Of a stretch of DNA of 64,000 bases, positions 2,096 through 63,027 are shown in pieces (the stretch's first letter is position 1; every line of letters starts with the position of its first letter). This stretch comes from Clostridia bacterium (GTDB taxonomy: Bacteria; Bacillota; Clostridia; Oscillospirales; CAG-272): positions 4,456 through 68,455 of the forward strand of contig JAFQHD010000108.1 of NCBI GenBank assembly GCA_017398145.1, read 5' to 3'. A program made the translations under genes and the position numbers. The notes below the pieces were generated by a model. It had not been told where the DNA came from. It did no database searches and saw only the letters and a list, made by a program, of their open reading frames with translations.

Positions 2096-4110
2096 AAAAT
2101 ATCGGAAGAAGAATCTACATCGCTCTTGTATTTCTGTTCTTATATGCACCTATCGCGGTGCTTATAGTGAACTCCTTCAACGCTTCAAAGAGCCGTTCTG
2201 TATGGGGTGGGTTTACCTTTGACTGGTACCGAAAGCTGTTGATGGACGAGACCATTTTAAAATCCCTTGTTACCACTCTTGTGGTGGCACTTATCGCATC
2301 TGTTATTTCCACTATTCTCGGAACGGCTGCAGCTATAGGTATCTTCAATATGAAGAAGAACTGGCGTTCTGCTATTCTTAACATTTCTTATTTGCCTATT
2401 ATGAACCCCGAGATAGTAACCGGTGTATCCCTTATGCTTCTCTTCGTATCAATGAAGTTGAGCTTCGGATACCTGACCTTGATATTGGCTCACGTTTCTT
2501 TCTGTGTGCCTTACGTCATACTTAACGTCCTGCCGAAGCTGCGGCAGATGGACAAGCACCTTGTGGAGGCGGCGCTGGACCTTGGATGTGACCGCTGGCA
2601 GGCATTCTGGAAGGTGACGGTACCCGAGATAATGCCGGGTATAGTCACAGGCTTTCTTATGAGTATAACCTACTCGGTGGACGACTTTGTAATCAGCTAC
2701 TTTACCCACGGCTCAAAGGCACAGACTCTGTCTATCACCATCTATTCTATGACACGCCGCAAGGTCAGCCCCAAGGTAAATGCACTTTCTACTCTCATCT
2801 TTGTAGTAGTGCTTGTAGTCCTTATCATTGTAAATCTGGGCGATATCAGAAAGAACACTCCCAAAAAGCCCAAGAAAAAGGGAAGAGGCAAAAAAGCGGC
2901 GGCTATGGCTATGACCGTGCTTTGTCTTGTACCGTGCCTTGCCTTCGGCATATCCGCAGACTCCCCCTACTCCGACTCTGTTGACTGGAATAAGTTCCGT
3001 GATCAGGGTGTGGAGATAAATGTTTATAACTGGGGTGAATATATCTCGGTAGACGAGGGCGAGGAGGGTGACTTTGACACCATTGCCGAGTTTGAAAAGC
3101 TCACAGGCATCAATGTAAACTACACTACCTTTGCTTCAAACGAGGAGCTTTACGCCAAGCTTAAAAGCGGCGGCTTTACCTACGATGTTATCATCCCCTC
3201 CGACTATATGGCAGGCCGCCTTATAAACGAGGGAATGGTACAGAAGCTCAACTTTGAAAATATTCCCAATATACAGTGGATAGACGAAAGATTTTTAGGC
3301 TCTGCCTTTGATGTGAACAACGAGTATACCGTACCATATACATGGGGTTATGTAGGCATAATCTATAACAAGACTCTCGTTGATCCCGAGGATGACGTAA
3401 ACACATGGGATATCCTCTGGGACGAAAAGTATGCCAAGAACATACTCATGTTCAACAACTCCCGTGATGCCTTTGCCATAGCTCAGTTCAAGAACGGCTT
3501 TTCGGTAAACACGGCGGACGAGAGAGAGCTGGAGATCGCGGCAGATACTCTGCGCGAGCAGAAGCCCCTTGTACAGTCCTATGTCATGGACGAGATATTT
3601 GACAAGATGGGCGGCGGTGAGGCGGCTCTTGCGCCCTATTATGCAGGTGACGCGGTAACCATGATGGCGGACAACCCCGATCTTGCATTCGCTATCCCCC
3701 GTGAAGGCTATAACTACTTTATCGACTCTATGTGCATCCCCACTACCGCGACCCATAAGGAAGCGGCTGAGATGTTCATCAACTTTATGTGCGAAACAGA
3801 GGTTGCACTTCGCAATATAGAATATATCTGTTACTCCACCCCTCACACAGGAGCTCTTGAGCGCCTTGACGAAGAGGTAAGGAACAACCCCATATTCTAC
3901 CCCTCGGACGAGGATCTGGTGGTAGCCGAAGCATACAACGCTCTGCCCGAGGATGCTACCAAGACCATCGACTCCCTATGGACCGATATAATGAGTAACA
4001 CAGGCTCTATACCCTGGCTTACTCCCGTATTTCTCGTAGTATGTATCGGTGTTGCATCCTATATCAACATCCGCCGCATTCAGAAAAACAAGCGTAAAAA
4101 TGAAATCTGA
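2092..4110 (+). CDS. Fused PotC permease / PotD polyamine-binding protein with an extra C-terminal TM helix
   Basis: GTG start overlaps the potB TGA (GTGA). Residues 1-260 are permease-like (EAALDLGCD loop). A basic linker and hydrophobic segment follow, then a PotD-like periplasmic binding domain of about 330 aa, then a terminal hydrophobic helix (WLTPVFLVVCIGVASYI). Confidence 0.8.
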   Translation: MKNIGRRIYIALVFLFLYAPIAVLIVNSFNASKSRSVWGGFTFDWYRKLLMDETILKSLVTTLVVALIASVISTILGTAAAIGIFNMKKNWRSAILNISYLPIMNPEIVTGVSLMLLFVSMKLSFGYLTLILAHVSFCVPYVILNVLPKLRQMDKHLVEAALDLGCDRWQAFWKVTVPEIMPGIVTGFLMSITYSVDDFVISYFTHGSKAQTLSITIYSMTRRKVSPKVNALSTLIFVVVLVVLIIVNLGDIRKNTPKKPKKKGRGKKAAAMAMTVLCLVPCLAFGISADSPYSDSVDWNKFRDQGVEINVYNWGEYISVDEGEEGDFDTIAEFEKLTGINVNYTTFASNEELYAKLKSGGFTYDVIIPSDYMAGRLINEGMVQKLNFENIPNIQWIDERFLGSAFDVNNEYTVPYTWGYVGIIYNKTLVDPEDDVNTWDILWDEKYAKNILMFNNSRDAFAIAQFKNGFSVNTADERELEIAADTLREQKPLVQSYVMDEIFDKMGGGEAALAPYYAGDAVTMMADNPDLAFAIPREGYNYFIDSMCIPTTATHKEAAEMFINFMCETEVALRNIEYICYSTPHTGALERLDEEVRNNPIFYPSDEDLVVAEAYNALPEDATKTIDSLWTDIMSNTGSIPWLTPVFLVVCIGVASYINIRRIQKNKRKNEI

Positions 4111-8712: not shown

Positions 8713-9337
8713 CCTTGACGGAACTCTTATAGATTCCATGCCCATGTGGCATAATTTCGTTGGGGTTTATCTTGATAAATACGGTATGAAGCCTGACGAA
8801 TATCTTCTTAAAAACGCAAAGGATATGACCTTTGAGGAGTCTTCGGAATATATTCATAAGCATTACGATATAGGCAAGAGCCCTGAGGAAATAGTAAAGG
8901 ATATGACCGATACTGCGGCAGATGCTTACACCAATACCATACCGATAAAGCATGATGTAAAGCCCTTCCTCTTTGCCCTGCGCTGTAAAGGTGTAAGAAT
9001 GTGTATCGCTACAGCCAGTCCCCGCGAATGGGCAGAATCGGTGCTCCGTAGACTTAACATAGATCATTATTTTTCGGTGATACTCTCCTGCTATGACCTC
9101 AAGACCTCAAAGAGTGAACCTATGATATACGACCGTGCCTTTGATATATTGGGTACAGACAGAGAGACCACCTATGTCTTTGAGGATTCGGTAAACTGTA
9201 TCCGCACCGCAAAGGCGGCGGGATATAAGGTCATCGGAGTTAAGGACGAGATGTCCGCACCCGATGAGGAAGAGATAAAGAAGCTCTCTGATATCTACAT
9301 AAAGGATTTCGACGATTTCCGCGGAATGGTAAGATAA
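8687..9337 (+). CDS. HAD-superfamily hydrolase (beta-phosphoglucomutase-like subfamily IA)
   Basis: DxDGT motif (FDLDGTLIDS), with later ATAS and EDS motifs. Confidence 0.8.
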   Translation: MIITGAIFDLDGTLIDSMPMWHNFVGVYLDKYGMKPDEYLLKNAKDMTFEESSEYIHKHYDIGKSPEEIVKDMTDTAADAYTNTIPIKHDVKPFLFALRCKGVRMCIATASPREWAESVLRRLNIDHYFSVILSCYDLKTSKSEPMIYDRAFDILGTDRETTYVFEDSVNCIRTAKAAGYKVIGVKDEMSAPDEEEIKKLSDIYIKDFDDFRGMVR

Positions 9338-9361
9338 AAAGCCTGCGACGCAGGCTTTTTA
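9337..9361. terminator. Bidirectional hairpin terminator
   Basis: AAAAAGCCTGC-gac-GCAGGCTTTTT. Confidence 0.8.
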
Positions 9362-9400
9362 TAATGCGGAATTATGGATGAAAACAGTTGCCAACTGTTT

Positions 9401-9673
9401 TCATTTGTTCTTGATTATCTTATCCGGGAATACAGAGGCGTTTATCAGGTCGGCGGGGTCTATATCCAAAGCATCCGCGATATTGAAAAATATCTCAAGG
9501 GAAAAGCTGTTCGCCATACCGGGTGCTTCGATAACGCTTATAGTATTTCTGCTGGTACCTGCTTTCTCTGCCAACTCCTCCTGAGATAAGCCTCTGAACT
9601 TTCTTAAGGTGGCGATAGCTATGCCTATTTGAATAAATCTGTCCTTGTTCTTATGCGAAACTTCTGCTCTCAT
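9401..9673 (-). CDS. XRE-family helix-turn-helix transcriptional regulator (90 aa)
   Basis: HTH_3-like segment LRKFRGLSQEELAEKAGTSRNTISVIE. Confidence 0.8.
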   Translation of the reverse strand: MRAEVSHKNKDRFIQIGIAIATLRKFRGLSQEELAEKAGTSRNTISVIEAPGMANSFSLEIFFNIADALDIDPADLINASVFPDKIIKNK

Positions 9674-9751
9674 ATATATATATCCTTTAATAGTTTTTCA
9701 ACTATATTATAGGATATTTAACGGCAACTATCAGTAGAGTTAGCAAAGCAC

Positions 9752-9780
9752 TTGACAAATTAGACAAGCAAATATATAAT
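9752..9780 (+). promoter_or_regulatory. Consensus sigma-A promoter (TTGACA-17-TATAAT)
   Basis: TTGACA at 9752-9757 and TATAAT at 9775-9780, with exactly 17 nt between them. Confidence 0.75.
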
Positions 9781-9786
9781 ACATAT

Positions 9787-9916
9787 GGTATTTGCTGTTG
9801 TAGCAATACGGTTATCCGGTCGGACACCGTTCTCTCAATATTCAACTGCCGACGCTTATCGTTGTATTGATTCCGATTCGGATAACAGTAAAAGGACTTG
9901 CATCGCAAGTCCTTTT
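9787..9916 (+). ncRNA. Candidate orphan small RNA (about 130 nt) running from the consensus promoter to a terminator
   Basis: No RBS-preceded ORF. Predicted helices: 9788-9796/9802-9809; GTTATCCG 9811-9818 with CGGATAAC 9879-9886; GTCGG 9819-9823 with CCGAC 9849-9853. Terminator GGACTTGC-atc-GCAAGTCC plus TTTT at 9894-9916. The downstream gene is convergent. Confidence 0.5.
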
Positions 9917-10523
9917 ATAATACTTCTTTTACTTTATTAAATATTTCCTCAGCTATAATCTCAGGTTCTCTTGTTCCGTCAACAATAAGGATGTTTTCTT
10001 TGTTTTTTAATTTATCAAACAGATCAAAGAAATTCTTTCTTATCTGTTGCTGACGGTCTAACTTTTCAAATATCTCTGTCTCACCGCGGCTTGACACTCT
10101 GCTCATCGACTGTTCTGCCGGAACGTCAAGGAAGATATGCAGATCGGGTCTTGCTATATTCGCAGCCTCGCGGTTAAGTGCCATTATCCAGTCGAGGTCA
10201 CAGTCAACCGATTGGTATGCATAGGAGGACAGGTAGTATCTGTCGCAGAGAACTACGTTGCCCCTTGCTAAATTGTCAAGTATACCGTTCTCGGTCGTTA
10301 TATGATGAAGCCTGTCAGCGGCAAAAAGAGCAGCTATAGCTCGAAGATCGGTCTTTTCCTCTCCGCCCAGATATTTACGAAGCTGCTTCCCCATAGGGTC
10401 GTCGGTGGGTTCCTTGGTTATATGTACGGGGATATTCCTTTCGGCGAGGGCTTTGTGCAGCAGCTTTATCTGTGTGGTCTTTCCGCTTCCGTCTATACCC
10501 TCGAATACGATGAATTTTGACAT
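9915..10523 (-). CDS. tmk: dTMP (thymidylate) kinase
   Basis: P-loop FEGIDGSGKTTQ, a DRY motif and a typical length of 202 aa. Confidence 0.92.
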   Translation of the reverse strand: MSKFIVFEGIDGSGKTTQIKLLHKALAERNIPVHITKEPTDDPMGKQLRKYLGGEEKTDLRAIAALFAADRLHHITTENGILDNLARGNVVLCDRYYLSSYAYQSVDCDLDWIMALNREAANIARPDLHIFLDVPAEQSMSRVSSRGETEIFEKLDRQQQIRKNFFDLFDKLKNKENILIVDGTREPEIIAEEIFNKVKEVL

Positions 10524-10580: not shown

Positions 10581-10832
10581 TTAAAATGCAAGCTCTTCGC
10601 CGTCGTCGGTACTCTCTGCAACGTCATCAGCCTCATCGAAGAATCCGTCTCCGTCATAGCAGCCTTCGCAGTCATCAAAGAAAAAGTCATCGTCAAAATC
10701 AAAAGGATCGGTATCCTTTACATGGCGCTTCTTGTTGTATTTTTTGTAGATAAGGGCAACAGCCACAAAGATAGCCGCAAGAGATCCGAGGATCACTAAA
10801 ACCTTAATTAAAGTATTATTCTTCTTTTCCAT
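10581..10832 (-). CDS. Small N-terminally anchored membrane protein with an extremely acidic D/F-rich tail (83 aa)
   Basis: One TM helix (LIKVLVILGSLAAIFVAVALIY), then KKYNKKRH and an Asp/Phe-rich tail containing CEGC. I recognise no family. Confidence 0.55.
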   Translation of the reverse strand: MEKKNNTLIKVLVILGSLAAIFVAVALIYKKYNKKRHVKDTDPFDFDDDFFFDDCEGCYDGDGFFDEADDVAESTDDGEELAF

Positions 10833-10966
10833 TCTTCTACACCCTTTCCAAATTTATTTGGTGATAGTATTATAACACAAATATTATCGGATGTAAACAT
10901 GTTTTTGATGCAAAAATTAAAAAAAATATCAATAATTATATTAAAAGTTGCATTTTTCATTTAAAT

Positions 10967-15848: not shown

Positions 15849-15901
15849 CTTCATATATATTATATTTATAACAAAAATATTTGTCAAGTAAAGGAAAAAA
15901 G

Positions 15902-20598: not shown

Positions 20599-20775
20599 AA
20601 GAAATCTTACATAAACCCATTGACATTTTCGGAAAACCGATATATAATTTGTTGTAGAGTTTAAGAAATCTTAACTAAACGGGGCTAAGATTTAATATTT
20701 CCGAAATCATTGTATCAGATTTCCGAAGTATTGTCAAGATAAATTTTAAGATTTCTTAAAATTACTTTTCGGTAT
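20599..20775. promoter_or_regulatory. Divergent control region: consensus promoter plus two families of repeated operator-like motifs
   Basis: TTGACA at 20620-20625 and TATAAT at 20643-20648 (17-nt spacer, plus strand). TAAGA-AA-TCTTA at 20599-20609 (partial), 20662-20673 and 20747-20758. TTTCCGAA/TTCGGAAA at 20626-20636, 20697-20707, 20719-20729 and 20765-20775. Confidence 0.7.
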
Positions 20776-24404: not shown

Positions 24405-24480
24405 TGGTCGAAGTGTGGAGATTCGAACTCCAGGCCTCCAGTACCCGAAACTGGCGCGCTACCAACTGCGCTACACCTCG
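24405..24480 (-). tRNA. tRNA-Pro (anticodon CGG), CCA encoded
   Basis: Manual cloverleaf: acceptor CGAGGTG/CACTTCG, D stem GCGC/GCGC, anticodon stem CCAGT/ACTGG with loop TTCGGGT, T arm TGGAG-TTCGAAT-CTCCA. 76 nt. Confidence 0.9.
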
Positions 24481-24671: not shown

Positions 24672-24700
24672 ATTATATCATAATAAAAATACAATGTCAA
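24672..24700 (-). promoter_or_regulatory. Consensus promoter (TTGACA-17-TATAAT) driving the tRNA-like copy and tRNA-Pro
   Basis: Minus-strand TTGACA at 24695-24700 and TATAAT at 24672-24677. The predicted TSS is about 8 nt before the tRNA-like 5' end. Confidence 0.75.
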
Positions 24701-42692: not shown

Positions 42693-42821
42693 TTTGTGTA
42701 TTGGAATTATAACACAGGACTCCGAGTTTGTCAATATTCGGTTTACATTTTGTTTAAAAATCAGCGAAAATTATCTTTGGTTTTCTTGTGAGAACGAAAA
42801 AGATCATATACAATTTCCGTT

Positions 42822-42850
42822 TTGACAAACGGGTGTAAATATGATATAAT
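42822..42850 (+). promoter_or_regulatory. Consensus promoter TTGACA-17-TATAAT upstream of the miaA leader
   Basis: TTGACA at 42822-42827 and TATAAT at 42845-42850. Confidence 0.75.
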
Positions 42851-62998: not shown

Positions 62999-63027
62999 TT
63001 GACAAATAAATTTTTGTGTGGTATAAT
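62999..63027 (+). promoter_or_regulatory. Consensus promoter TTGACA-17-(TGg)TATAAT
   Basis: TTGACA at 62999-63004, an extended -10 TG at 63019-63020 and TATAAT at 63022-63027. Confidence 0.75.

Follow-up and report, generated by a model that had tools for sequence, protein, structure and literature searches.

Trans-encoded small RNAs (sRNAs) of the Firmicutes, e.g. RsaE/RoxS, are transcripts of ~100-150 nt without an ORF, which have their own promoter, end at an intrinsic terminator and present exposed C/U-rich loops. Short, conserved, pyrimidine-rich single strands are carried on their stem-loops, and their transcription is under the control of dedicated transcription factors. A different case is that of the CreT RNA toxins, which are repressed through CreA/Cascade. 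In regions of the C.AhdI, SinR and phage CI/Cro type, a small HTH_3 protein is encoded next to a divergent strong promoter, with repeated sites covering the -35 element and the spacer.

The locus described here lies between two housekeeping genes of an uncultured animal-gut Clostridia bacterium known from metagenome assemblies, in a stretch of 64,000 nucleotides referred to as the window. It combines a predicted RNA with a gene for an XRE-type regulator, hereafter XRE (Table 1). Like the RsaE/RoxS-type sRNAs, the RNA has a strong promoter of its own, an intrinsic terminator, a similar size, no ORF, exposed pyrimidine-rich strands and an associated regulator; it differs in matching no Rfam family, in its very narrow distribution and in being predicted from sequence. 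The arrangement of C-protein, SinR and CI/Cro regions is also reproduced, but the controlled product here is a predicted RNA instead of a protein, and the candidate operator consists of two direct AGCA repeats 21 bp apart, whereas the C-box of the C proteins is palindromic and demonstrated. The locus shares with CreT a very strong promoter beside a tightly linked putative repressor, and losses which never remove XRE alone; unlike CreT, the RNA lacks a start-codon-plus-rare-codon module, and a protein takes the place of the RNA-guided complex as the putative repressor. Another related arrangement is a cassette in which a homologous XRE (54-77% identity) and the same promoter block, with the same spacing and divergent layout, are joined to a gene for a YpsA-type SLOG protein, whereas the payload of the window is a 130-nt RNA without detectable similarity to the SLOG gene. 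The unit is most likely a genuine, lineage-restricted sRNA gene of ~130 nt, putatively repressed by XRE and placed in the cargo slot of the cassette, a reading to which we assign a probability of roughly 0.55.

Table 1. Features of the RNA unit and of the adjoining genes, in positions of the window.
Feature	Position	Strand	Basis or remark
XRE regulator, HTH_3, 90 aa	9401-9673	-	ORF; Pfam HTH_3, E = 4e-10
XRE promoter: -35 CTGATA 9734-9729, -10 TATAAT 9711-9706	9706-9734	-	10/12
AGCA repeats: AGCAC 9747-9751, AAGCAA 9766-9771	9747-9771	+	21 bp apart, conserved
RNA promoter: TTGACA 9752-9757, 17 nt, TATAAT 9775-9780	9752-9780	+	12/12 consensus
Predicted RNA, ~130 nt	9787-9916	+	from the inferred start (G 9787, 7 nt past the -10) as far as the U tract
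P1, 5' hairpin (GUAUU-U-GCUG / UAGC-AAUAC)	9788-9797/9801-9809	+	in the minimum-energy fold
P2 (long-range helix), 5' strand (GUUAUCCGGUCGGA)	9811-9824	+	fold and lineage comparison
CU-rich tract UUCUCUC	9830-9836	+	unpaired in the fold
CAACUGC motif	9843-9849	+	mostly unpaired; invariant in 5/6 lineages, CAUCUGC in L107
P2, 3' strand (UCCGAU-U-CGGAUAAC)	9872-9886	+	fold and lineage comparison
Intrinsic terminator AAAAGGACUUGC-AUC-GCAAGUCCUUUU (DNA AAAAGGACTTGC-ATC-GCAAGTCCTTTT)	9890-9916	+	14-pair stem reported at 9888-9918
tmk	9915-10523	-	stop codon 9915-9917 overlaps the RNA terminator

The ORF map agrees with an earlier note on this DNA, which had described tmk as convergent and XRE as divergent relative to the unit. 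A point of the layout absent from that note is that tmk and XRE share the - strand, with tmk upstream, so that the RNA unit is antisense within the tmk-XRE spacer. A riboswitch or 5' leader would be followed by a gene on the same strand; since tmk, the gene that follows, runs towards the unit and the transcript would end inside its stop codon, the unit does not fit either class. The same layout, with tmk likewise convergent, is found in L188, and in L107 the neighbouring gene is convergent too, with no ORF seen in the ~480-nt spacer. The closest solved relatives of XRE are the controller protein C.AhdI and SinR. It has more than 1000 homologues, the best among those listed being ~72-79% identical, and their records derive from uncultured Clostridia, Eubacteriales and Oscillospiraceae genomes from animal-gut metagenomes. 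The protein comprises an HTH only, without a peptide-sensing domain, and PADLOC and NCBIfam returned nothing but generic HTH matches for it.

The perfect consensus promoter that had been claimed for the unit, TTGACA-17-TATAAT, was found at 12 of 12 positions. The 64-kb window contains seven such sites, where shuffled sequence would give 0.01, so they are regarded as real signals, used as promoters by the organism. The remaining six are located at 15859-15887(-), 20620-20648(+), 24672-24700(-), 42706-42734(-), 42822-42850(+) and 62999-63027(+); one perfect promoter lies ~190 nt upstream of tRNA-Pro (24405-24480, -), and two form a divergent pair near 42.7-42.85 kb.

The promoter of XRE is placed back to back with that of the RNA, and its -10 and -35 hexamers occupy fixed positions in 22 family members (ATTATA ... 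tCtGta). The block upstream of XRE keeps a fixed spacing in these 22 loci, in which the XRE -10 and -35 are followed by aAAGCa.TTGACta.ttt..t.AGCAat..TATAAT. Outside the promoter hexamers, information among the 22 family promoters is highest at the AGCA repeats, the first of which overlaps the -35 on its upstream edge, the second lying in the promoter spacer. They are likely to be half-sites of an XRE operator, binding to which would shut the divergent promoter. The locus thus has the make-up of an XRE-family cassette, i.e. an HTH_3 protein, back-to-back promoters and AGCA repeats at fixed spacing. The promoter 29-mer is identical in the window, L005 and L085, despite the XRE synonymous sites being only 56% identical between the window and L085, and it is kept at 100% between genomes whose fourfold-degenerate sites are 40-55% identical. 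The label 'orphan', under which the earlier note had placed the unit, is therefore misleading, as the promoter is the family-wide divergent promoter of XRE and the slot behind it usually holds a YpsA-type SLOG gene. For the pairing with XRE, offered in that note as a guess, the link is stronger than guessed, given the family-wide promoter and the conservation of both AGCA repeats.

In 10 related loci, the conserved promoter is followed by a SLOG protein which starts with ..YTVSFFGHR.. and measures 138-188 aa where full-length; L016 retains a 33-aa stub and the gene of L109 runs off its contig. Pfam YpsA (PF06908) is matched by four of eight SLOG members (best E = 7.8e-7), and PADLOC and NCBIfam returned nothing for this cargo. 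Other cargo behind the same promoter includes an AbrB/MazE-like protein, a 52-aa protein and a 200-aa protein without a family. Since the same promoter drives a SLOG protein in related cassettes, the RNA is seen as an alternative payload under the same switch. Some cassettes look decayed, with a short unit without an ORF in L013, a truncated promoter in L015 and the 33-aa stub in L016. XRE with a divergent YpsA-type SLOG gene, behind a near-consensus promoter, was observed at L006, L007, L008, L018, L108, L109, L110, L112 and L113; no description of this pair was found in the literature, and the two-gene cassette appears to be undescribed. ORF-less stretches running from promoter to hairpin are also present in other cassettes (L013 at ~2880-3000 on the - strand, L009/L010/L012/L111 and L092), with sequences and folds unrelated to those of the window RNA. 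The L013 stretch is ~110 nt long and ends with GGCTCCCGAAGG...CCTTCGGGAGTTTTT; immediately behind the promoter it reads *YKV*FISHRHL, possibly a SLOG N-terminus in decay.

The start of the RNA was placed at ~9787 from promoter geometry alone, 103 nt from the terminator. Folding of 9787-9918 yields -46.5 kcal/mol (z = -6.1), and the RNA body without the terminator -28.2 kcal/mol (z = -2.6). The 5' hairpin and the long-range helix GTTATCCG/CGGATAAC drawn in the earlier note both belong to the minimum-energy fold. Its inner helix, GTCGG (9819-9823) with CCGAC (9849-9853), is not supported, as it is absent from the fold and CCGAC is missing in the closest relative, L005; GTCGG extends P2 by pairing with 9873-9877, both in the fold and in L005. 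In the window, P2 counts 14-15 bp and closes a loop of ~50 nt. The core of P1 is the inverted repeat TTGCT/AGCAA; all close variants retain the hairpin, in which U-A pairs have changed to U-G, and a hairpin of unrelated sequence stands at its position in L107. Equivalents of the CU-rich tract in the other lineages are CUUUU, UUUCUC, UCUCU, CUCUCCU and CCUCCUU, and the tract could act as a seed resembling an anti-Shine-Dalgarno sequence. The constraint on P1 and on CAACTGC could also act on DNA sites, in the case of P1 a protein site, and not on the RNA.

The strong hairpin terminator which had been claimed ~110 nt past the promoter is indeed present. Being palindromic, it works in both directions, and it is common to the RNA unit and tmk. 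Its stem is invariant in four lineages, with a variable loop, and in L188 and L107 its place, immediately behind P2, is taken by terminator hairpins of unrelated sequence, which indicates that termination is conserved there and not its sequence. A short transcript bounded by its own promoter and an intrinsic terminator is thus predicted from sequence in six lineages. The hairpin GGACTTGC/GCAAGTCC, with flanks GATAA..AAAAG / CTTTTATAAT, serves as the RNA terminator and is also the terminator of the HAD gene in L086 and L099, so that in L099 it flanks XRE and the RNA on both sides. The terminator sites compared are 9890-9916 and 9328-9352 in the window, 93-111 and 653-671 in L099, and ~3480-3510 in L086. 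On the HAD side of the window a different stem (GCCTGC) is found within the same flanks as those of the RNA terminator, and the terminator loops differ by inversion, reading ATC in the window and GAT in L085. The duplicated hairpin may mark the ends of an inserted cassette.

The RNA was seen only where XRE adjoins a HAD hydrolase gene, and it lies between tmk and HAD in all cases except L107. Six diverged versions were distinguished: that of the window (= L001-L003), L005/L101, L085/L094/L097/L098/L105, L099, L188 and L107. No more than about six lineages at species level carry the RNA, in each case at one and the same syntenic site. They represent different species: in the RNA-bearing loci compared, fourfold-degenerate identity to the window is 39-50% for tmk and 51-68% for HAD. 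In all six lineages, a 5' hairpin is followed by a long helix and, immediately behind that helix, by a terminator. The helix is anchored on UAUC.../...GAUAA, counts 10-17 bp across lineages and closes ~50-55 nt, in which a CU-rich tract, CA(A/U)CUGC(U) and ACCG recur in all six.

For P2, a helix alignment was made by the analyst by means of the anchors and with bulges removed, and therefore leans towards pairing. In this alignment, columns 3-11 and 13 are paired in all six lineages, column 12 is A.C in the L085 group, and the pair types vary at column 7 (CG/UA), column 8 (GC/CG/UA/UG) and column 9 (GC/GU/UA). With the same leaning towards pairing, 91.9% of its cells are paired against 79.9% in shuffles (0/500 reach this value), six pairs have changed on both sides (10/500 shuffles), and the covariation score is 0.372 against 0.189 (0/500 shuffles); in slid registers, only 24-46% of the cells pair. 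Between the window and L005, four substitutions fall in the 3' strand of P2, three of which are compatible with pairing (C to U, A to G, U to C), with the fourth in a bulge. A covariance-model alignment of the eight closest sequences in the register of the window contains one double-sided change, a count reached by 63/500 shuffles. The check proposed in the earlier note, covariation in homologues, is thus positive on the anchor-based alignment and weak on the covariance-model register, in a sample of about six independent lineages.

The covariance model, built from these eight sequences with the terminator included, recovers all eight together with the half-deleted copies in L095/L096. Its further hits are only look-alike terminators, and the diverged L107 copy is not found; L107 and L188 were therefore called homologues by position, promoter, layout and short motifs instead of by score. 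An exact-pattern scan of JGI metagenomes with the promoter 29-mer gave 0 matches, exact scans of viral contigs with the RNA motif pattern and with the family promoter pattern gave 0 matches each, and BLAST of 9674-9920 against plasmid and phage collections returned no match. In Rfam 15 at the gathering threshold, the whole window yields only tRNA-Pro (24408-24480). The statement that the RNA belongs to no recognised family stood up to the Rfam scan, without a match even at E <= 10, a level at which the unit, within 9300-10300, is overlapped only by terminator-type look-alikes far below threshold. A reading of the inverted repeat as integron attC-like or MITE-like was discarded, as the core sites mismatch and it occurs as a single copy in 64 kb.

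The RNA unit has been deleted at least three times independently in wild populations. In contigs with the XRE variant P0003 (L086, L087, L089, L090), the spacer is reduced to 23 nt, with the junction at a TCCTTT direct repeat, and L100 has an independent junction of 33 nt at the same TCCTTT microhomology. Two clean excisions (L086-L091 and L100) at the direct repeat TCCTTT(T)A are thus observed, which leave XRE 23-33 nt behind tmk. In L095/L096, an internal deletion of 123 nt has taken the XRE -35 together with the RNA promoter and half of the RNA, on its 5' side; the deletion is polymorphic among contigs with an identical XRE protein, that of these loci being the same as in the intact L094. 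In all observed losses, the RNA or its promoter is taken, and never XRE alone. In view of three independent deletions, the RNA unit is dispensable; together with the small number of carrier lineages, the rapid change of the interior and target searches that gave no hit, these deletions weigh against an important role.

As for sequence divergence, the identity between the window and L085 is ~72% for the RNA (interior ~65%), lower than the 85-95% of two neighbouring spacers. When the window is compared with L005, identity reaches 98-100% over XRE, both promoters and the initial ~45 nt of the RNA, against 84-86% for tmk and HAD; beyond ~9830, divergence returns to the background level. This pattern points to a recent recombination tract of ~430 bp (9401-9830) which would have carried the regulator between species and has one end inside the RNA gene. 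Diversifying selection on the RNA interior was considered for the same pair and set aside, as a tract ending near 9830 offers a better explanation.

The main rival to an sRNA gene, which we consider possible but rather unlikely, is a transcribed relic, in which a protein cargo of the YpsA-type SLOG kind was lost and the RNA between promoter and terminator has no function. The promoter would survive as it is interlocked with the autoregulated promoter of XRE, and the terminator would stop antisense transcription into tmk and end that of tmk itself. Ten related cassettes with a SLOG gene behind the same promoter speak for a relic, as do the decayed appearance of L013, L015 and L016, the three separate deletions and the fast-evolving interior. 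A cargo origin is suggested by a 10-nt match, TCGGACACCG, with the codons for F-G-H-R in the cargo genes of L007 and L008 and by a 49-column alignment, and local nucleotide alignment of the RNA with cargo 5' ends reaches p = 0.02 for L005 against shuffles. The corresponding values for the window (0.24), L099 (0.99) and L107 (0.43) are not significant, the remaining one is 0.08, and searches for a SLOG remnant in the RNA unit by tblastn and with a four-sequence HMM (hmmsearch) returned ~0 bits; significant residual similarity, as expected of a SLOG pseudogene, was thus found neither at the protein level nor, L005 apart, at the nucleotide level. Moreover, compensatory and wobble changes that preserve a helix of 10-17 bp in six lineages, the re-acquisition of an unrelated terminator immediately behind that helix and a CAACUGC that stays invariant amid changing neighbours are not what a relic would show.

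The strand on which the structure acts bears on a further alternative, which is very improbable, namely a structured spacer or 5' leader within tmk-to-XRE read-through transcripts, which controls XRE from the - strand and renders the + promoter incidental. The co-orientation of tmk and XRE, the good fold of the - strand (z = -5.2), the bidirectional terminator and the deletion variants with XRE 23-33 nt behind tmk are compatible with it. However, the P2 alignment contains eleven G.U cells, which would turn into A.C mismatches on the - strand and pair only in a + strand RNA, and thereby place the RNA on the + strand; the + promoter is perfectly conserved and family-wide, and XRE is served by a conserved promoter of its own, located downstream of the structure. 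The least probable alternative is a small, possibly leaderless hydrophobic peptide (MVFAVVAIRL...), acting as a type I toxin or as a signalling peptide paired with an XRE-type regulator. It draws on the ATG at 9785, at or before the predicted transcript start, and on the hydrophobic character of the first ten residues. The claim that the unit lacks a credible ORF has nevertheless stood: the frame (9785-9940) lacks a Shine-Dalgarno sequence and, with 51 aa here, extends across the terminator, but has 17 aa in L005; its ATG is replaced by ATT or missing in L085, L099 and L188. CAACTGC falls in different frames by lineage, and the frame through the motif has no conserved start codon; across the RNA versions neither length, start codon nor frame is conserved, and a 68-aa frame on the - strand is not conserved in frame either. 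A type I toxin-antitoxin system would comprise a conserved hydrophobic ORF with an RBS and an antisense RNA, and no conserved ORF was found on either strand. The lack of a peptide-sensing domain in the 90-aa, HTH-only XRE also weighs against a signalling peptide, and an RRNPP/Rgg-type regulator with its peptide gene was rejected on the size of the regulator (90 aa versus ~280 aa) and the lack of a conserved small ORF.

On the preferred reading of an XRE-repressed sRNA gene, an XRE dimer would bind the two AGCA repeats, at the -35 edge and in the spacer, and keep the sigma-A-type promoter shut, with XRE itself expressed from its own back-to-back promoter, as the conserved geometry suggests. When XRE occupancy falls, the promoter would fire from ~9787, and the transcript would fold into the 5' hairpin and the 14-15 bp helix closing the ~50-nt loop and end at the adjoining terminator, a structure proposed because the six-lineage comparison supports it. 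The RNA would then probably act in trans, using the exposed CU-rich tract and CAACUGC to engage an mRNA or a protein, a further step which we regard as tentative. Duplexes of the RNA with the RBS/start region of XRE gave z values from -3.0 to +1.1, in five of six lineages no better than shuffles, and the best match of the RNA loop to 56 local translation starts (z = -2.3) is what is expected for the extreme of 56. The stop codon of XRE lies inside a hairpin, GAAAACAGTTG-C-CAACTGTTTTC (window 9381-9403), the 5' arm of which, in the mRNA, contains CAGUUG and one more base, complementary to CAACUG and one more base of the RNA (9842-9849), a match noticed post hoc. The flanking base of the RNA is U, G or A where that of the XRE mRNA is G, C or U in the window, L085 and L099, respectively (U.G, G-C, A-U), and both CAACUG and CAGUUG are missing in L107. 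A pairing of the RNA motif with the terminator hairpin of the XRE mRNA is an unproven, post hoc lead.

A more speculative and improbable extension is that the cassette is a portable 'guarded payload', in which one clade swapped the YpsA-type SLOG protein for a structured RNA effector; the RNA would then be functionally equivalent to the protein cargo, for example a growth-arresting or defence RNA kept silent under XRE and released on its inactivation. It would explain why losses take the RNA or its promoter and never XRE alone. If expressed and functional, the unit would be an unannotated sRNA family from uncultured animal-gut Clostridia, with a single conserved repressor-promoter switch that controls a protein or an RNA, depending on the genome, and comparison of the payloads provides a natural experiment on what the cassette is for. 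If the unit is a relic, it would be a clean and datable case of a regulated promoter outliving its gene and then being erased by short direct repeats.

Further observations concern the surroundings of the locus. An 83-aa protein (window 10581-10832, -), whose N-terminal segment is hydrophobic and whose C-terminus is very acidic and rich in Phe and Asp, matched no Pfam or NCBIfam family; its gene is syntenic beside tmk wherever DNA upstream of tmk was recovered. At 91-95% identity between species that agree in only 39-50% of their tmk fourfold sites, the AT-rich spacer between this gene and rlmN (10833-10966, GC ~21-35%) is better conserved than the flanking coding DNA; on its - strand it contains a TG-extended 11/12 promoter (10897-10869). 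A repeat-like insert, made of GGAATGCGG units and ..GGCA(C/T)TCCCTAC(G/A)GTC(GGAATT).. hairpins, is present in different spacers of related genomes, at ~2560-2750 in L085, in spacers of L098, L104 and L105, and at ~600-940 in L107, and may be a small REP- or MITE-like element.
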